Virus record (IMG/VR): IMGVR_UViG_3300037467_002149 | Span: 4,445-68,444 of that record | Length of the DNA: 64,000 nucleotides | Origin: a virus | Direction: 5' to 3' (one strand) | Shown: positions 12,765 through 36,146 of the stretch, piece by piece | Layout of the letters: each line of letters begins with the position of its first letter | Position numbering within the stretch: position 1 is the stretch's first letter | Translations under genes and position numbers: made by a program | The notes under the pieces: generated by a model | What the model was told of the DNA's origin: nothing | The model's database searches: none | Seen by the model: the letters and a program-made list of their open reading frames with translations, nothing else

Positions 12765-14534
12765 GTGATGTTCGAGGACCTCTACCAGACGGTGAAGCAG
12801 CGTTACGGCGCCGGTTCCTCGAAGCAGTCCAACAGCGAGTGGGTCTGCAACAACACGACGATCAAGCGCGCGACGCCGTTCTCATTCGACGGCTACGAAT
12901 TCCAGCGCGCGATCATGGACGACATGCACCCCGACCTGTCGTGCATCAAATGCTCCCAGGTCGGCCTCACCGAGGTCCAGCTCCGCAAATATCTCGCAAC
13001 ACTGACCCGGTATGATGCGGTGTCGGGCATCTTCTCGCTGCCGAACGAGGACATGTTCAAGCGCGTCTACAAGACCCGCCTTAAGCCGATCCTCGACCGC
13101 GACGACATCTTCAACCCACCGATGGATGTGAAGCCGATCCGCTCGACCGGACTCATCCAGATCCGGGAGAGCTTCGGTTACATCACCGGATGCGGGGAAG
13201 ACGACGCGACTTCAATCCCCGCCGACTTCCTGATGCACGACGAGCTCGACCTGTCCCCCGAGGACATGATCGGTCTGTATCAGTCGCGTCTGCAGAACTC
13301 GAACATGCGGATCACGCAGAAGTTCTCGACGCCCACCTTCAAGGGCTACGGGATCGACAAGGACTACAAGCTCACCGACCAACGTGAATACGAGATCCGC
13401 TGCTCAGCTTGTAACCACTGGCAGATCCCGCTCTTCAACCGGAAGTTCGTTCACTGTCCCGAGTTCGACCAACTCAACCTCAAAGAGTTCACGGACCTCA
13501 CGCCAGAGATCATCGCGACGATGGATCTCTCCGAGACCTACGTCCATTGTGAGCGCTGCTGCAAACCACTGGACCTGGCGAACCCGGAGCTCCGCGAGTG
13601 GGTGGCTCGTCATCCAAGCCGAACGGCGTTCCGCGGATATTACGTCCGACCGTTCTCGGCCGGCCGGCTCAGCCCCCAGTATGTCTTCACGCAGCTCGCC
13701 AAGTATCAGAAGGTCGGGTTCACCCGCGGCTTCTTCAACACCGTGCTCGGCGAGCCGCACAACTCGGCCGACAGCCAGGTCCAGCGGGAAGACGTCGAAG
13801 CCTGCATGATCAGCGGTGAGATTGCCAATGTCTCCTACGGCACGCCCGTGTTCATGGGCATCGACGTCGGCTTCCAGTGCTACATCACGCTCTCATTCGA
13901 CGACGAGAAGGGCACTCCGCACTGGGTTCTGTTTGAGCAGGTGCCGATCGCGCGTCTCGAGGCGCGGATCGCTGAGCTCCGCAAGGTCTATAATATCGTT
14001 GGCGCGGGTATTGACCGCTTCCCCTTCACGCCAACCGTCGACGCACTCCGGGACTTCACTCAAGGCCTGGTGATGCCAATCCAATGGCGCGGCGAGAAGG
14101 GTCTCATCCCTCAGAAGGACGAGCTCGGGGTGCTCACGCACTATTCGGCGAACCCGACCCAAACCTTCGACCGAATGCTCGCTGCCATCTCCCAAAGAAA
14201 GATGGTGATCGGCGGTTACACGCATTCCCGGGAGACACTCATCACGCACCTCTGCGACATGGTGCGCGATGAAAGTCCCGACGCAAATGCCGAGGCGACG
14301 TGGAAGAAGACCAGCGGCAACGACCACTACTTCCACTCGATGGCTTTCAACTTGTTGAGCCGGAGGATCTGCGAACACATGTACCAGACCCAGAGCGGGG
14401 TCACCGCGACCTCCAGCACGATCAGCGGTGCCACGATTGGCGCCCAGGACAACCTTCCGGGGCATCATGCTTCCACGTCTGACCGGTTGGGTCTGACGCG
14501 CCAGCGCGGTGACGTCATTACGAGGCACCGCTGA
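12765..14534 (+). CDS. terL: Terminase large subunit, lambda GpA-like
   Basis: KCSQVGLTE Walker A, MHDELD Walker B, CxxC pairs (CSAC, CERC), nuclease GIDVG and GNDHYFHS. Confidence 0.9.
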   Translation: MMFEDLYQTVKQRYGAGSSKQSNSEWVCNNTTIKRATPFSFDGYEFQRAIMDDMHPDLSCIKCSQVGLTEVQLRKYLATLTRYDAVSGIFSLPNEDMFKRVYKTRLKPILDRDDIFNPPMDVKPIRSTGLIQIRESFGYITGCGEDDATSIPADFLMHDELDLSPEDMIGLYQSRLQNSNMRITQKFSTPTFKGYGIDKDYKLTDQREYEIRCSACNHWQIPLFNRKFVHCPEFDQLNLKEFTDLTPEIIATMDLSETYVHCERCCKPLDLANPELREWVARHPSRTAFRGYYVRPFSAGRLSPQYVFTQLAKYQKVGFTRGFFNTVLGEPHNSADSQVQREDVEACMISGEIANVSYGTPVFMGIDVGFQCYITLSFDDEKGTPHWVLFEQVPIARLEARIAELRKVYNIVGAGIDRFPFTPTVDALRDFTQGLVMPIQWRGEKGLIPQKDELGVLTHYSANPTQTFDRMLAAISQRKMVIGGYTHSRETLITHLCDMVRDESPDANAEATWKKTSGNDHYFHSMAFNLLSRRICEHMYQTQSGVTATSSTISGATIGAQDNLPGHHASTSDRLGLTRQRGDVITRHR

Positions 14535-29533: not shown

Positions 29534-30427
29534 ATGTCCAGCTTTAGGATACGGTTCAGGTTCAACCAGCAGAAGGGTGGTTCCACCACTTCGGAGTTGA
29601 GGCCACGCGGCTTCGAAAATTTCGCCCGGGTGATCGTCGAAGATTTCGCTGTCTCTTACGGCGACAAGATGTTTGACCTCCTGAAGCGCACGATCCAGGA
29701 ACGGACGCAGGCGGATATCGAGCGTGAGCTCGATCACATGGCGAAGTTGTTCATGGCCCGTGTGGTCGGAATCGCAGGCCGTAATCAGGGACCGACCGGG
29801 GAGCTCACGACGGTCGCGCCTTTGAGCGAAGCTATGCAAAGCTTCTCCTTCACGCAGGCCTCGGTTCGATCGCTTACAGGGAACTGGCCGAGGCGCAGTC
29901 CCTTCTATATGCAATCTCGTAAGTGGGCGGGCGACAGCTGGTTCCATAGAACTGGCGGGAGCCTCGCGCCTTTGAGGTCAGCAAAAACCTGGACGGGTGC
30001 CTTCGGCGGCATCACTGTCTCGGTCAACAGGCACACCTCGCTGAACCGAAAAGATCTCGGAAGCACCAAATTGGTCGCGACGAATTACAGTCGCAACACG
30101 GACACGAAGATCGCAATCGCGACAATCCGCGTGCAAGCCATGACGCGGATCACCCCGGGAATGTTGCCGGCGCTCGGGGGCGGCGGGCTCGGCGATTTCG
30201 GTTCAAACGCTCGCGGCTCAGGGCTTCTGGCGATGCTCGGCGAGCGCGTCGCGTGGCGGCTCGGCGGCAATCCGCAGACAGTGCCGTTCCGGCCGACTAT
30301 TCAGCCGTTCCTCGGTTATTTCCTGACACGCGCTATGCCGAATGCTGTGTTCAAGCGCATCGAGCAGGGCTTCCAGGGTCAGCGCTGGAAGTGGGAAGAA
30401 ACCCACGGCGCCGGGCGCACGCGTTAA
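29534..30427 (+). CDS. Basic virion morphogenesis protein (neck/tail completion candidate)
   Basis: 297-aa track ORF in the head-tail region. Confidence 0.45.
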   Translation: MSSFRIRFRFNQQKGGSTTSELRPRGFENFARVIVEDFAVSYGDKMFDLLKRTIQERTQADIERELDHMAKLFMARVVGIAGRNQGPTGELTTVAPLSEAMQSFSFTQASVRSLTGNWPRRSPFYMQSRKWAGDSWFHRTGGSLAPLRSAKTWTGAFGGITVSVNRHTSLNRKDLGSTKLVATNYSRNTDTKIAIATIRVQAMTRITPGMLPALGGGGLGDFGSNARGSGLLAMLGERVAWRLGGNPQTVPFRPTIQPFLGYFLTRAMPNAVFKRIEQGFQGQRWKWEETHGAGRTR

Positions 30428-30497
30428 GTCACAGCGCGCTCTACACCGGCAACCGCGGTCAACCATAAGACTCCTAGCACCAACGCAAGGAGCCACC

Positions 30498-30713
30498 GTG
30501 TCCAGCAGATCCCACCGGAGTTTCACGCTTCGTGTAGAAACCCCACTCTATCTCGAGCTCGCCGAAAAAGCGCAGGCCGAAGGCATTCCCCTCAATCAGC
30601 TCGCTAACCGGCTCCTGAAGCTCGGCATGGGCAAGCATATTTCTCTCGACAGTGCGCTGCGGTCGCTCCTCATGGAACGGGTCATTCGCGAAGACCCGGC
30701 GGTGCAAGCATGA
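30498..30713 (+). CDS. Arc/CopG-like ribbon-helix-helix DNA-binding protein
   Basis: GTG start after AAGGAG; SFTLRVETPLYLELAEKAQAEGIPLNQLANRLL is a typical RHH pattern. Confidence 0.75.
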   Translation: MSSRSHRSFTLRVETPLYLELAEKAQAEGIPLNQLANRLLKLGMGKHISLDSALRSLLMERVIREDPAVQA

Positions 30714-31132
30714 CGGCCGTGACAGCAGGCGGGATGGAGCGCCCGCCGCTGACTTGTACGGTGAAGCTCGAGGACGAGACCGAATACACGGTCAAGATGA
30801 GCTACGGTCTGCAGCAGGATATTCAGCGGGTGGTGCCCGATCCGGCCGGTATCGTCGACACGATTGCCGGAGATCCCTACGCCCGCGATTACATCTTGCG
30901 ACGCTGCATGACGCCAGAGAAGAAGCTCATCAAGGATGAAGCCGAGCTCAAGCCCGCCGAGGATATCGGCCTCGATGATCCTGATGAGATCAACAAGCTG
31001 CTGCAGTGGGCAACAGGACACCTCCTGTATTTTTTCGCGATCTCGGCGGGCGGGCTGAAGCAGTTGAGCGAACAGTTGGCATCGAAGCTGGAGGACCGAC
31101 CCGCCCCCTCGACACCTGGTTCTCCGAGCTAA
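30710..31132 (+). CDS. Tail assembly chaperone (gpG-like)
   Basis: Upstream of the tape measure gene; carries slippery T TTT TTC at 31030-31036. Confidence 0.7.
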   Translation: MTAVTAGGMERPPLTCTVKLEDETEYTVKMSYGLQQDIQRVVPDPAGIVDTIAGDPYARDYILRRCMTPEKKLIKDEAELKPAEDIGLDDPDEINKLLQWATGHLLYFFAISAGGLKQLSEQLASKLEDRPAPSTPGSPS

Positions 31133-31422
31133 GTTTCGAGGAAAGCATCTGCTGGGCGTTCGAGGTCGACGAAGGTGATCTCGAGGAGCTTTACTGGCGT
31201 CTCAGCTTTTACGAGCTGATTGGTCGCGTGAAGCTTAAGCTCGGCGAGCTCAACGCCCGTATGCTATGTCAGTTCACCGCGTTCGCAGAGGTGGTGAACG
31301 GGGTGTTTGGCAAGAAGGAGAGCGGCGGTCCGCTTGTGAAGGGTGAATACACCGACCTGGCCGAGGCGCCCTCGTTCGAAGCCGCGATCGCCAAGATCAA
31401 CGCCGCGCTGACCTTTGGTTGA
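31030..31422 (+). CDS. -1 frameshift extension of the chaperone (gpGT-like)
   Basis: The -1 frame (track ORF 31006..31422) is open from the slippery site and lacks an obvious SD-linked start of its own. Confidence 0.7.
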   Translation, partial: FFRDLGGRAEAVERTVGIEAGGPTRPLDTWFSELSFEESICWAFEVDEGDLEELYWRLSFYELIGRVKLKLGELNARMLCQFTAFAEVVNGVFGKKESGGPLVKGEYTDLAEAPSFEAAIAKINAALTFG

Positions 31423-31480
31423 CGTCTTTTTGCTGTTGCCACTTATCGTCCGTCTTAAACGGACAAATAGCTTCGGCAGC

Positions 31481-31495
31481 GAAAGGAGGTGATCC
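31481..31495 (+). promoter_or_regulatory. Extended Shine-Dalgarno-like element GAAAGGAGGTGATCC with no nearby start codon
   Basis: Matches the reverse complement of the conserved 16S rRNA 3' tail (GGAUCACCUCCUUUC); sits among hairpins about 115 nt before the tape measure start. Confidence 0.6.
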
Positions 31496-31610
31496 TTCAT
31501 CTCCCCGGACACGGGGTTTCGCGCGGGCCACCACGAAAACGGATGGTGGTGGCCCGCTAAGTCACAGCCCATCCGTGAAAAGCGTGCCCCGCTCCGGTTG
31601 AGAGTCTGGA

Positions 31611-34600
31611 ATGAGCGGCGGCACTGTCGAGACCGATGTCATTCTGGACGCCGACGGCCAAGCCGTCTTCAAGGCGTTCGACGAGGTCGCTCGCCGCGTC
31701 AAAGAGATCCAGACCTCCGTTACCGCGATCCAGACCAAGGCGAGGGAAGCCGCCAACGGTTTCGGCGGCTCGCTACAAAAGACGCTCGGCGATTTCAACA
31801 AGACCATCGCTGCGCTCGAGCGGTTCCAGAGCAACGTCAAGAACATCAACGAGAAGCTCTTCGCCGGTTCGCCTCAAGGCCAGATGGCAGCCCAGGCGCA
31901 GGCGATGCGTCAACGCGCCCAGGAAGAGGAGCGTGCCTGGCAGCAGCTTGAGGCTCAGAAGACCCAGCTTTCCCAGAAGCGGATGACTCAGGAGGCCCAG
32001 ATGTGGGCCTCCTACGATCGTCAGGTCCACAAGGACATTGTCGAGCAGGAGCAGCTGAAAGAGCGGCTCGCGATCCAGCGCTGGGAGCGTGAGCGAGCAC
32101 AGGCAACGCAGGCTGAACGCGAGCAGGACCGCTTGCGAGAGCAGAACCGCGTTAAGCAACTGCGCGATACGGCCCAGCTGCAGGTAACGAATGCCAAGTC
32201 CAGTGAGCTTCAGGCGCTTCGTGCGGGAGCTTCAGCGAACCTGACCGACCTTCGCTCGCGTCGGGATCTCGGAAGCCAGGAGGACCAACGTCGCATCGAG
32301 CAAGCGATCGCGCTCGAAAAGGAGCGCCTGAAGCTCGTCGAGAGTCGGATCGCAGCCGAGCAGCGTGCCACCGACAAGGTCGCCAATTCCGATGCTCGAA
32401 TCCAAGCAGCGCTCGATATCCGAAGCGGACGCAATGCGGAGCGGGCGCTTGCCACGCAGCTCGATCTGAATGCCGCCAAGATCCGGCAGACCGATCTCGA
32501 AGCGGCGATCGCGATGCAGATCGAGAAAGCGCGCGCCCTTTCGGGCAAGGCGCTGATCGACGCTGAGCGCTCTCTCAAGGTCGACGAAGCTCGGCTGCAG
32601 GTCACGAATCAGCGGGTCCGCGCGCTTGAGAGGGAAACCGCGCAGCAAACCCGGGAAGCGAACAGGCCACCGCCAGGAAGCGGGGGCGGGGGCGGCCTGT
32701 TCGGCAGCTCCGGCATCGCTGGGATCTTCGCGCGCACGGCAGCGTATGGCGGCGCCGCGATGGCGATCTACGCTACGCTGGGTGCGATCAAGGACGGCAT
32801 CACCTACTCGCTGCAGTTCGAAGATGCGATTGCCAAGCTCGGTGCGATCTCGGGCGCAACTGCAACGCAACAGGCTCAGCTGGCCAAGACAATTGCCGAG
32901 GTCGGTGAGCAGTCGCGCTTCTCGACGCTCGATCTAGCAAATGCCGCGACCGTGCTTGCTCAGGCGGGCTTCACTCAGGGTGAAATCGCGGACTCGCTCA
33001 AGAGCATTTCGCAACTCGCGACCGCGTCGGGCACGTCAATCGCCGAAGCGACGGACGTCGTCACTTCGGCGATCGGCGCTTTCCAGCTGCAGGCCAGTGA
33101 GACGTCACACATCAACGACGTGCTCGCGTCAGCATTGAACCGCACCAAACTGAACATTCAGCAGGTGGCGCTTGGCATTCAGTATGCCGGCGCGACCGCG
33201 CATGAGAATAAGATCAGCTTTGAAGAGCTCACCGCGGTCATGGCCACGATGGCCAACGCTGGTATCCGCTCGGGTTCGACGATCGGTACCGGTATCCGGC
33301 AATTCCTGGTCGATCTGCAAACACCGACCAAAGCACTGGCCGATGAGCTCAAGAAGCTGCATCTCTCAATGGCCGACATCGACGTCGACCAGCTCGGCCT
33401 GCCCGAGGTGCTCAACCGTCTGGCGGCTGCAGGCTTTGACAGCGCCGCCGCCTATAAGACGCTCGAGACACGCGCGGCTGCGGCTTACCTGGTTCTCCGC
33501 AACAATCGCGAAGAGATCCAGCAGCAGATCATCGCGCAGAACCAAATCGGCCAGTCGGCCGAAGCAGCTGCCAAAGGTCAGGAGTCGCTCGCCGCTGAGT
33601 GGCAGCGGTTCAAGAACATCCTCAATGAGAGTGTCGAGGGCGGGCTGAAGCCCGCCACGAATGCTCTGCGCGACTTCTTCAAGTCGTTCAACGACAACGC
33701 CAGTGATGAGACGCTCAAGAAATTCCGCGAGCGCCTTCGTGCGGCCTTCGGTAATCCAGAAGAGCTTGCTCGCATCAACCAGGAGATGCTCAACTACCAG
33801 GCCGTCAAGCGCGACGTTGCCGATGCCGAGGCCGCGCACGCCGACGCGATCGAAAAGACGACGACCGCCTACAATCAAGCAACGGAAGCCGTCGGCAAGC
33901 AGCGAACTGTCCTCTCCTCGCTCGATGACGCAACGGCCCGTGTCTATGTTCGCGGCAAGGAGCTGAGTTCGAACCAGACTGCCCTCCAAGCCGAGGTGGC
34001 GACGCTCACCACTCGGTTCCAGGGGCTCTCGACGTATCTCGACAGCACGGCGGTCAGCTATGACAACCTGACCGCCGCTCTTCGCAATTACCGCCTTGAG
34101 CAGTTGAAAGCGCTCGGTAGCGCCCTGCAGACGCAGGCGGCCACGGGCAGGTTACAAGGCGGCGAGTTCATCGGTCAGGCGAACTCAATCACCCAGACAA
34201 ATCTGCAGAACGGCACCTTCAGCCGGCTGCCGCAGAATGTGCAAGGCCTTTACCGAAGTGTTATCGCCAATCCGAACAACGACATCCTCCGTCGTCAATT
34301 GTTCGATGCTTCGGCTAAGCTGCCGGCTGACCTTAAGCATTTCGTGGATGAGTTTTCCGTGTCGCTCGACAAGGGCGTGAACGCACTGCGAGCCTCGCAG
34401 CAAGCGCGCGGCCAGCTTGATATCGTGGGACAGCTCTCCTCGCAGAAGGGCGCCGCGCTTCAGGCTGAAGTATCAGCACTGGCCGGTAAACCCGACGCCC
34501 AAATCAAGGCCAAGATCGCTCAGTACCAGAGAGCCAAGCAGGGCAAGACTACGAGCGTGATCGGTGCCTACGATGCGCTCATCGAAGAGCTTGAGGGCTT

Positions 34601-36146
34601 CATCGGCAGCGGCGCGCATCCCGAAGCGCCCGAAAAGAAAAAGCGCTCGGGAGCGGGACTTGAGAACCGCCAGACCCGCGCAATGGACGCTTTGTCGCTG
34701 AAGGCTGATGAGGCTGAGCTCCGCAACGCGATCAAAGCTCTGCTCCACGCTGGGGGCAGGGCGTCAACCGACGCGGACGGCAACATCGTCGTCGCAGGAG
34801 CTCGGACGCTCACGACCGAACGTCTGAAGCAGAATGTCCAGCGCGTCGACGACTCTCTCCAGGCGTGGGTTGACGACCGTACCCAGCAGGTGCGGGATCA
34901 GATCAAGCAGCTGAAGCTCGATCCAAATTCTGGCCGCGGCCAGGAGATGATGAACGATCTCCAGAGGGAGATCGATGCGAAGCGTGAGGACGTGCATCGC
35001 CAGATTGGCGATCTCGTTGCCAAGGCGCTGCAGAAGGTTCTCGAGGGGATCGAGAAGACCACCAGGCGCGCCGAAGAGGTCGTGGACCACCAGGAACGCA
35101 TGGCCGAGGCCCGTGTCGCGGCACTTGACCGTCAGTCGCTCAATGGCCGAGTGCCAGACTATGTCCGCGCGAATGTCGAGCGCCAAGCGGCGCTCGCGAA
35201 AGATGATGGGGACCGCCAGCGGATTGCGATCAATGACCGGAATCTCGCGGACCTGACGAAGGCGCGCGACGATTGGGCAGCAATCGTCGACTATCTGCAA
35301 GTTGTCGGTGACCTCGAGAACGACGACCCAGCGATCAAAGCGCTCCAGGATCTGAACGATCAGATCACGACGCTGAAGAACAGTAATGAGGCGCTCAAGG
35401 CCAGCTTCGGCGGCGAGGCTCTGATCCCGCAGAGCTTCGGTGACGCCTGGGGACAGGCGGTCGAGAACTGGCGTGAGGCGAACAAGGGCGCCGGGGATTT
35501 CGCGACCACGGTCAAGAACAATCTCGGCGGTGCGCTCGAAACGGTGCAGGGCTCCATGCAGGAGTTCTTCACCAATGTGATGAGCGGGACCATGTCCATG
35601 AAGGAAGCCTTCAGGAACATGGTCAAGCAGATCATCGGCTACCTCATCCAGCTGATCGCCAAGCTGATCGTTGTGAAGATCTTGCAAACCGCACTCGGCG
35701 GGGGTCCGAGCGGTGGTGCAGTTATCGCGAGCGCCCAGGCGGCAGAAGCTGCGTCGGGGCTGGATCTGAACGCGGGCTTCGCCAAGCTTTACGGTGGTCA
35801 GGTCCACGCCCTCTCGGGGCGTTATATTCGAGACGGCGTGCCCAATCGTGACAGCGTGAACGCTAAGATCGCACGCGGCGAATATGTCACGCGCAAGTGG
35901 GCGGTGGACAATGTCGGCGTCGACTTCATGGACCGCCTGAACAATCGTGGTGTCGCGGCTCTGAAGGACTTCGGTCCCAAGGTCGTGCTGCCGCCGCCGG
36001 CGCAGCAGAAGATGGCCGTGTATGTCATGCTGCCGGAGGAGCAGCCGTCAATGGGCCCGAATGACGTCCTCGTGGCCGTTGCCAACGACATCTACCGCGG
36101 CGGCCCGACCAAGCAGCTTATCAAGGAGGTCGCACAGGGTGTCTGA
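31611..36146 (+). CDS. Tape measure protein
   Basis: 1511 aa, Ala/Gln-rich helical; TP901-type core FEDAIAKLGAISGAT...ELTAVMATMANAGIRSGSTIGT. Confidence 0.92.
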   Translation: MSGGTVETDVILDADGQAVFKAFDEVARRVKEIQTSVTAIQTKAREAANGFGGSLQKTLGDFNKTIAALERFQSNVKNINEKLFAGSPQGQMAAQAQAMRQRAQEEERAWQQLEAQKTQLSQKRMTQEAQMWASYDRQVHKDIVEQEQLKERLAIQRWERERAQATQAEREQDRLREQNRVKQLRDTAQLQVTNAKSSELQALRAGASANLTDLRSRRDLGSQEDQRRIEQAIALEKERLKLVESRIAAEQRATDKVANSDARIQAALDIRSGRNAERALATQLDLNAAKIRQTDLEAAIAMQIEKARALSGKALIDAERSLKVDEARLQVTNQRVRALERETAQQTREANRPPPGSGGGGGLFGSSGIAGIFARTAAYGGAAMAIYATLGAIKDGITYSLQFEDAIAKLGAISGATATQQAQLAKTIAEVGEQSRFSTLDLANAATVLAQAGFTQGEIADSLKSISQLATASGTSIAEATDVVTSAIGAFQLQASETSHINDVLASALNRTKLNIQQVALGIQYAGATAHENKISFEELTAVMATMANAGIRSGSTIGTGIRQFLVDLQTPTKALADELKKLHLSMADIDVDQLGLPEVLNRLAAAGFDSAAAYKTLETRAAAAYLVLRNNREEIQQQIIAQNQIGQSAEAAAKGQESLAAEWQRFKNILNESVEGGLKPATNALRDFFKSFNDNASDETLKKFRERLRAAFGNPEELARINQEMLNYQAVKRDVADAEAAHADAIEKTTTAYNQATEAVGKQRTVLSSLDDATARVYVRGKELSSNQTALQAEVATLTTRFQGLSTYLDSTAVSYDNLTAALRNYRLEQLKALGSALQTQAATGRLQGGEFIGQANSITQTNLQNGTFSRLPQNVQGLYRSVIANPNNDILRRQLFDASAKLPADLKHFVDEFSVSLDKGVNALRASQQARGQLDIVGQLSSQKGAALQAEVSALAGKPDAQIKAKIAQYQRAKQGKTTSVIGAYDALIEELEGFIGSGAHPEAPEKKKRSGAGLENRQTRAMDALSLKADEAELRNAIKALLHAGGRASTDADGNIVVAGARTLTTERLKQNVQRVDDSLQAWVDDRTQQVRDQIKQLKLDPNSGRGQEMMNDLQREIDAKREDVHRQIGDLVAKALQKVLEGIEKTTRRAEEVVDHQERMAEARVAALDRQSLNGRVPDYVRANVERQAALAKDDGDRQRIAINDRNLADLTKARDDWAAIVDYLQVVGDLENDDPAIKALQDLNDQITTLKNSNEALKASFGGEALIPQSFGDAWGQAVENWREANKGAGDFATTVKNNLGGALETVQGSMQEFFTNVMSGTMSMKEAFRNMVKQIIGYLIQLIAKLIVVKILQTALGGGPSGGAVIASAQAAEAASGLDLNAGFAKLYGGQVHALSGRYIRDGVPNRDSVNAKIARGEYVTRKWAVDNVGVDFMDRLNNRGVAALKDFGPKVVLPPPAQQKMAVYVMLPEEQPSMGPNDVLVAVANDIYRGGPTKQLIKEVAQGV

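Follow-up and report, generated by a model that had tools for sequence, protein, structure and literature searches.

A start-less extended Shine-Dalgarno word followed by AUCU suggests a candidate 30S-docking element in phage late transcripts

Gene neighbourhood of the element

The window, by which we mean the whole 64,000-nt stretch of DNA analysed here, is part of a circular 81,437-bp phage genome of the 81-kb, Seussvirus-like kind. Its capsid protein shares 45-48% identity with those of Caulobacter phage Seuss and Achromobacter phage JWF. A relative at 79% capsid identity is a Sphingomonas jaspsi prophage, and the host of the window phage is therefore probably a sphingomonad. The element under study occupies the 188-nt gap between the stop of the GT chaperone (31422) and the tape-measure gene (31611). 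The features of this region are as follows.

30710..31132, + strand: tail assembly chaperone G (PHROG 37198, E 5e-8)
31028..31036, + strand: candidate -1 slippery site T TTT TTC, identical in six of six relatives
31420..31422, + strand: TGA stop of the GT chaperone, overlapping a "-35" proposed in an earlier note on this DNA
31423..31480, + strand: spacer of 58 nt (58-59 nt in six kin, with only about 50% identity)
31448-31464, + strand: first hairpin, inside the spacer, not conserved in kin
31481..31495, + strand: extended Shine-Dalgarno (SD) word, 15-nt complement of the 16S 3' tail, with a 14-nt core 100% conserved in six kin
31499..31502, + strand: AUCU at start-codon distance, 3-4 nt 3' of the SD in six of six kin
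31503..31516, + strand: P2, a short hairpin directly 3' of AUCU, replaced by a pseudoknot or terminator in other members of the wider family
31523-31534/31546-31557, + strand: P3, a 12-bp stem covarying in six kin
31557..31563, + strand: CUAAGUC (CUAAUCC in three kin), near complement of 16S 785-791
31564..31603, + strand: conserved 3' block, a CAC..GTG mini-stem and a CTC/GAG hairpin covering the weak tape-measure ribosome-binding site (RBS)
31611..36146, + strand: tape measure protein gene (PHROG 37649, E 7e-91)

The T TTT TTC site probably yields the frameshifted GT chaperone, whose frame ends at 31422; in Seuss, too, slippage is annotated at a comparable codon. A small gene for an Arc-like ribbon-helix-helix protein (30342-30713; PHROG 3180, E 2e-4), the true start of which is probably downstream of 30342, separates the probable major tail gene from the chaperone. 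The counterpart of this small gene in the S. jaspsi prophage gives a faint HicB match. The morphogenesis and structural genes at 12765, 14534, 24565, 29534 and 30710 have mostly weak or no SD, the capsid gene alone having a clear one. A Sphingopyxis flava prophage (L235:12900-14868) carries about 2 kb of additional DNA between the chaperone and tape-measure genes, indicating that this junction accepts insertions.

We considered whether the gap itself holds a gene. Neither the 60-aa open reading frame at 31419-31601 nor the frame at 31264-31572 on the - strand matched a protein family, and stops or frame changes break the 60-aa frame in kin. A moron with its own sigma-70 promoter at the junction was likewise rejected, there being no promoter and no family match for the 60-aa frame.

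Parts of the element

The earlier note had picked out TTGACG at 31419, several hairpins, the 15-mer at 31481-31495 and the P3 stem, and all of these lie where it placed them, as does GCTTCGGC at 31470-31477. Its reading of TTGACG as a -35 box did not survive: the word overlaps the GT stop TGA, no sigma-70 promoter was predicted, and the relatives have no -10. The hairpins, described as enclosing the SD word, in fact flank it. The conserved ATCT (31499-31502) and the conserved block at 31557-31603 were absent from that description.

As had been proposed, the 15-mer is an exact complement of the 16S 3' tail, here compared with three alphaproteobacterial tails (Sphingopyxis, Inquilinus and Mesorhizobium). 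It is single-copy in the 81-kb genome, where chance would provide about 1e-4 copies per window. No other site in the window pairs with the 16S tail as strongly (-29.4 kcal/mol for the 15-mer, -23.4 for the next-best site). The absence of ATG, GTG or TTG at SD distance was also confirmed. The triplet 9 nt 3' of GGAGG is ATC (31499), as it is in six of six kin, and the AUCU to which it belongs is the complement of 16S A790-U793.

Compared with shuffled sequences the region folds well, with z scores of -4.4 on the + strand and -5.2 on the - strand; because both strands fold, folding by itself leaves the strand undecided. The SD is predicted to be largely paired within the window RNA. A perfect 7-bp pairing between the P3 loop (31539-31545) and 31570-31576 was discarded as it occurs in the window only. 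No Rfam family reached its gathering score at the element in the window or at 26 further loci, the tRNA and tmRNA matches lying elsewhere. The best sub-threshold match was CC2171 (RF01867), which owed its 22.7 bits (cut-off 75) to the SD word.

Conservation among close relatives

The element is kept at the same junction in five distinct kin (L175, L178, L180, L181 and L065), one of them the S. jaspsi prophage; the four that were measured have 79-90% capsid identity to the window phage. The same junction in more distant relatives, Seuss and Achromobacter phage 2-1 among them, has no such element, which is thus dispensable for tail assembly.

Within the six kin the SD core is invariant while the spacer has diverged. 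The spacer retains a T-tract after the GT stop, a TA about 23 nt 5' of the SD, and a GC-NNNG-GC-W-GC pattern immediately 5' of the SD. The fixed distance from the GT stop to the SD could reflect a phage-specific promoter or a spacing constraint. Duplexes of the SD with the 16S tail span 14-18 bp in kin, against 15 contiguous nt in the window.

Covariance analysis across relatives, suggested earlier as a check, revealed compensatory changes in P3. The stem is 100% paired in the six kin, both partners having changed at five base pairs, and it includes G-U pairs when read on the + strand. Its covariation score was reached by 0 of 500 shuffles, for a set of only six related sequences. The hairpins described earlier exist and one of them covaries; the first (31448-31464) is not conserved. 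P2 varies in size, and the columns of the 3' block (31564-31603) are invariant, without covariation. Frames started by the AUC are 14-150 codons long in the six kin and unrelated in sequence, with no conserved peptide.

A wider family of SD and AUCU motifs

The SD word turned up in many unrelated phages when viral contigs were scanned by pattern. The wider motif consists of an extended SD, 0-5 nt, AUCU, and a hairpin or H-type pseudoknot, and pooling all scans gave at least 65 distinct viral SD+ATCT contexts in addition to those of the cultured phages PAK_P3, PAK_P4, LUZ100 and DSS3phi2. Since the first scan pattern required ATCTC, base preferences were taken from the one later scan that was unselected for downstream sequence. 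This sample comprises 69 contexts among the matches listed, dereplicated by flank k-mers, which falls short of full independence, and excludes one coding family (RKEVI). Among these matches, ATCT starts 0-5 nt after the SD in 21/69 contexts against a background of 1.9%, ATG follows in 17/69, and ACCT in 0/69. Again among the matches listed, the base after ATC is T in 22 of 27, and contexts lacking ATG and GTG have ATC 24 times versus ATT 3, ATA 2 and CTG 4.

By a crude ORF caller, about two thirds of the 65 contexts are intergenic, roughly 12 overlap or abut an upstream stop codon, and about 15 lie within ORFs, in either frame. A terminator follows within 95 nt on the sense strand in 24/65 copies versus 4/65 on the antisense strand, and in about 12/65 it starts within some 7 nt of AUCU. 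Several terminator-linked copies seem, on these crude gene calls, to be operon-terminal with nothing downstream to protect; in one contig (L019) a -10-like box and a terminator flank the motif. H-type pseudoknots directly after AUCU number 15/65 against 1.3 in shuffles, and plain hairpins are modestly enriched (34, with a shuffled mean of 21 and maximum of 34). AUC-started frames range from 1 to 619 codons across the 65 contexts with no conserved frame, and many stop after one codon. Among 20 genes scanned downstream, head scaffold was the commonest family. A search of 301 alphaproteobacterial genomes for the strict motif gave no match, and host chromosomes apparently seldom carry it. Within the literature searched, and in Rfam, we found no description of an AUCU-linked motif.

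Several copies have unusual surroundings. In a portal and RNA-ligase-like fusion (PHROG 755; L016:2861-4690, L041:3124-5064, L018 and L007:3208-4659), the SD, AUCU and hairpin lie in the linker between the two parts; in L007 the portal ends about 35 codons after the motif. We take the RNA-ligase-like domain to have a 2H/Acb1-like fold. The RKEVI family is a 229-aa protein matching no known PHROG (L015:2902-3591 and relatives L274-L283), in which the 15-mer is read in frame about 30 codons before the stop. These codons are kept in 9 of 10 loci, with one silent change in one, although this protein-selected sample is too small to reveal selection at the nucleotide level. A phage tmRNA (Rfam, 61.9 bits; L073:2268-2694) lies about 570 nt upstream of another copy. 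Immediately after a stop codon, Streptomyces phage Crosby and relatives (L395:1498-1560) have a variant whose SD core contains a mismatch (GGCGG) and which keeps AUCU together with a long hairpin.

In cultured phages the SD of the motif is slightly shorter. Pakpunavirus and Nankokuvirus share the motif at 89%, within their tRNA clusters, and its pseudoknot covaries. In PAK_P3 the annotated promoter that heads a tRNA transcript is about 45 nt upstream of the motif, and 3' of the motif we noticed by eye an unannotated tRNA-Asn-like sequence ending in CCA (L409, about 1285-1362) that Rfam did not call. The LUZ100 copy directly follows a tRNA-Asn upstream of the capsid gene, that of DSS3phi2 precedes a terminator, and that of Halomonas phage YPHTV-1 precedes the portal gene. 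Annotated sRNAs of PAK_P3 and PAK_P4 lie near the motif and do not include it; the motif was not found in the published PAK_P3 ncRNA1/2, PAK_P4 sRNA1 or the YuA leader ncRNA.

Complementarity of AUCU to the 16S 790 loop

A disabled start by itself would need no particular tetramer. We therefore compared the sequences following the SD with 16S rRNA. The E. coli 16S 5-mers whose complements most often follow the SD are 789-793 and 790-794. Among the matches listed, U occupies position -1 of AUCU in 34/63 (P 0.002 versus other spacer positions), which fits the 790 loop but also start-codon context, and A occupies position +1 in 10/21, again fitting the 790 loop. The best-ranked 7-mer complement within 100 nt is that of 785-791 (4/69, P 5e-5, among the matches listed), a 7-mer also present at 16S 241-247. 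Directly after P3, the complement of 785-791 is perfect in three kin and has one mismatch in the window. Some family members carry a 9-11 nt complement of the 790 loop; L083 and YPHTV-1 have 10-11 contiguous bases complementary to this region. In a provirus (L143:3899-3975) the extended SD is followed by two 790-loop complements, one of which (787-795) sits in a hairpin loop.

The 790 loop adjoins the path of mRNA leaving the SD helix. Tapprich and Hill (1986, cited in PMC4613259) reportedly probed 16S bases 787-795 with an artificial oligonucleotide; the exposed target is the same here, the complement being part of a natural RNA. The loop is exposed on the 30S subunit and acts in initiation and subunit joining (PMC4613259). 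In the literature searched we found no report of a natural RNA pairing with it.

Several observations temper this idea, which arose post hoc from L083, a copy that is itself included in the P values. The P value of the extension test (0.015) owes much to L083; 16S contains AGAU 6-7 times; and some of the long matches can pair within their own RNA. Close-spacing matches number nine, some of them coding and one family having an ATG start, and complements placed 8-38 nt after the SD were found in only two coding families, as expected by chance, lending no support. The window copy has four contiguous complementary bases only. AUCU and its flanks nevertheless match the 790 loop best, a hint of two-point rRNA pairing that we hold to be doubtful. 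If real, such pairing would obstruct initiator tRNA or the joining of subunits and would tether the 30S to the phage RNA, and would represent a natural bacterial RNA controlling ribosomes through rRNA pairing outside the SD.

A non-initiating 30S dock and its alternatives

At the level of sequence comparison, the results establish a sense RNA with a 15-nt complement of the 16S tail, an invariant AUCU, stable structure and no conserved peptide. Its core probably serves to dock 30S subunits: perfect pairing with the 16S tail, the conserved SD, P3 covariation, the AUCU bias, sense-strand terminators, pseudoknots and the lack of a conserved frame all point this way. The 16S tail would pair with the whole SD word, displacing weak local hairpins and giving very tight 30S binding. 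The poor AUC start and the structure immediately following it would mean that the complex seldom passes into elongation, and AUCU may provide a second contact with the neighbouring 790 loop. The parked 30S could then form a physical roadblock at the chaperone/tape-measure boundary. After cleavage upstream, decay that depends on the 5' end (by RNase J in alphaproteobacteria and by scanning RNase E elsewhere) would be kept from the downstream tail cistrons, whose weak RBSs the bound subunit would also separate from upstream ribosomes. Consistent with this, a full-length RNase J-like gene is present in three alphaproteobacterial genomes with related prophages (350-376 bits against a cut-off of 400, E at most 3e-104).

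The full account, in which a cis-acting, non-initiating 30S dock in the late transcript both protects and insulates the tail cistrons, is credible without quite being probable. Against it, 24/65 copies precede a terminator, the PAK_P3/P4 copies lie in tRNA clusters, distant relatives have no element at the junction, and the SD is predicted to be largely paired. Tape-measure protein is also needed in few copies. A 5'-bound ribosome moreover protects RNA weakly in E. coli (PMC3997798). The earlier proposal of a ribosome-trapping leader is supported by conservation, strand evidence and the behaviour of rreB (see below) as far as parking without a usable start is concerned, while a leader with its own promoter finds no support; the element more likely lies inside a polycistronic late transcript. 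Protection of the tape-measure mRNA, also proposed, is plausible at this locus and not a general role, because 24/65 copies precede terminators and some lie in tRNA clusters or coding linkers.

The terminator and tRNA contexts keep two other explanations alive. The RNA might act in trans as a stable small RNA binding free 30S, a sponge or hibernation-like clamp that shifts or damps host translation late in infection. The PAK_P4, PAK_P3 and LUZ100 copies in tRNA clusters with no ORF following, the many copies ending in a terminator and the boxed copy in L019 would suit this, as would 790-loop complementarity in an inhibitory clamp. We nonetheless consider it unlikely, given that the window copy has neither promoter nor strong terminator, that about 15/65 copies are inside ORFs, that the annotated PAK_P3/P4 sRNAs exclude the motif, and that 20-fold overexpression of rreB left growth unaffected (PMC5711450). 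Somewhat less likely still is a transcriptional role, in which 30S on the nascent RNA takes the place of a trailing ribosome, blocking Rho where nothing is translated, or covers the 5' arm of the neighbouring terminator, so that read-through tracks free 30S. Such coupling could explain why some 12/65 copies abut or overlap an upstream stop, why in about as many a terminator begins some 7 nt or less from AUCU, why the PAK_P3 copy is about 45 nt after its promoter, and why a short U run follows P2 in the window. Yet the motif is also common in Firmicutes-like-looking phages, and transcription and translation are uncoupled in Firmicutes; loading a fresh 30S probably takes longer than intrinsic termination, and the window P2 was not called as a terminator.

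The remaining readings fit worse than the roadblock, the small RNA acting in trans or the transcriptional role. AUC might be a weak start of the rre or infC kind, heading an IF3-sensitive throw-away uORF that tunes the downstream gene or RNA decay. It lies in the same 0-5 nt window after the SD as AUG and GUG, U is favoured at -1 (34/63 among the matches listed), and extended SDs support AUU and AUA starts in S. aureus (PMC13009471). Set against these, ORF length and frame vary in the six kin (14-150 codons), many frames elsewhere have one codon, and both the AUC excess (24 versus AUU 3, AUA 2 and CUG 4) and the fixed U at +4 go unexplained, so that this reading ranks a little below the transcriptional one. 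Far less probable is that AUCU(CC) is a cis anti-SD arm, forming either a hairpin that sequesters the SD or one that carries a fixed G-U pair and binds a protein. Hairpins of 7-9 bp between SD and AUCUCC are predicted in PAK_P4, LUZ100, DSS3phi2 and some kin, with a matching extension on both arms in DSS3phi2; however, stretches of self-pairing in the unselected set do not exceed chance length (P 0.74, among the matches listed), the Watson-Crick version ACCU occurs in 0 contexts among those matches, and A is as frequent as C after AUCU. With the self-hairpin not enriched and the stronger ACCU unused, we rejected it as what fixes AUCU. Least probable of all is a DNA site, an antisense mimic of the 16S tail on the - strand, or a chance match. 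The - strand folds equally well, and both the fixed 58-nt spacing and the CAC..GTG inverted repeat would suit a site in DNA, but the + strand G-U pairs in P3, the 24 sense versus 4 antisense terminators, the chance expectation of 1e-4 and a spread over unrelated phages that fits the universal 16S tail all speak for a sense RNA.

Relation to known systems

The closest parallels to a non-initiating dock are the rre genes. The 17-nt SD of rreB binds and co-sediments with 30S in vivo and is barely translated, and without its start codon the RNA half-life rises from 10 to 37 min (Hahn et al., RNA Biol, PMC5711450). The phage element resembles rreB/rreR in its extended SD (16-17 nt there, 15 here), alphaproteobacterial hosts and expected tight 30S binding, and CC2171 (RF01867) begins with the same SD word. 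In length of 16S complement, for which rre genes have at least 16 nt, the window has 15 contiguous nt and the kin have 14-18 bp duplexes. The rre genes are, however, chromosomal, with their own promoter and terminator, a GUG or AUG start and a conserved 14-18 aa peptide. The phage element lies within late operons, has AUCU instead of a start and no conserved peptide; no promoter or terminator is predicted for the window copy. Assignment to rre was rejected for want of a GUG/AUG start (ATC in six of six kin) and of a conserved 14-18 aa sORF.

The STAB-SD of B. thuringiensis cryIIIA presumably lies roughly 115-130 nt upstream of the true start, as the window element does. Like the phage element, it is a strong SD without a canonical start, and in Bacilli an SD without a start codon stabilises downstream RNA (PMC3997798). 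STAB-SDs are short purine runs that in Bacilli lie close to a 5' end produced by processing, and neither AUCU nor a covarying stem or pseudoknot has been described for them. The phage motif is also found ahead of terminators, among clustered tRNA genes and inside ORFs. In S. aureus infC, cvfC1 and ccpN, an extended SD is likewise followed by a near-cognate triplet at start distance (PMC13009471). These begin conserved proteins with AUA or AUU, and a non-canonical start of this type was rejected here because neither frame nor length is conserved. By analogy, then, the element would work like rre and STAB-SD, matching neither exactly.

The AUCU motif suggests a previously undescribed way in which phage RNAs might hold ribosomes without translating. 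Start-less extended-SD ribosome docks had been a few scattered cases; here extended SD, fixed AUCU and immediate hairpin or pseudoknot recur as a design across many unrelated phages. Because the motif is present in the cultured, tractable PAK_P3, PAK_P4, LUZ100 and DSS3phi2, two questions can be put to direct test. One is the means by which late phage RNAs retain 30S subunits, or vie for them, and withstand degradation; the other is the existence of natural bacterial RNAs that pair with rRNA at sites other than the anti-SD. The element could also serve as a portable RNA stabiliser or insulator, and it carries a warning for annotation that a perfect SD in a phage genome often marks no gene.

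Genes of the rre type do occur in viral contigs: L099 and L104 each have an extended SD, a GTG start and a short ORF, the former adjoining a tRNA. In three others (L092, L100 and L132), tiny Lys/Gly-rich ORFs ending in Cys lie 3' of the same extended SD.
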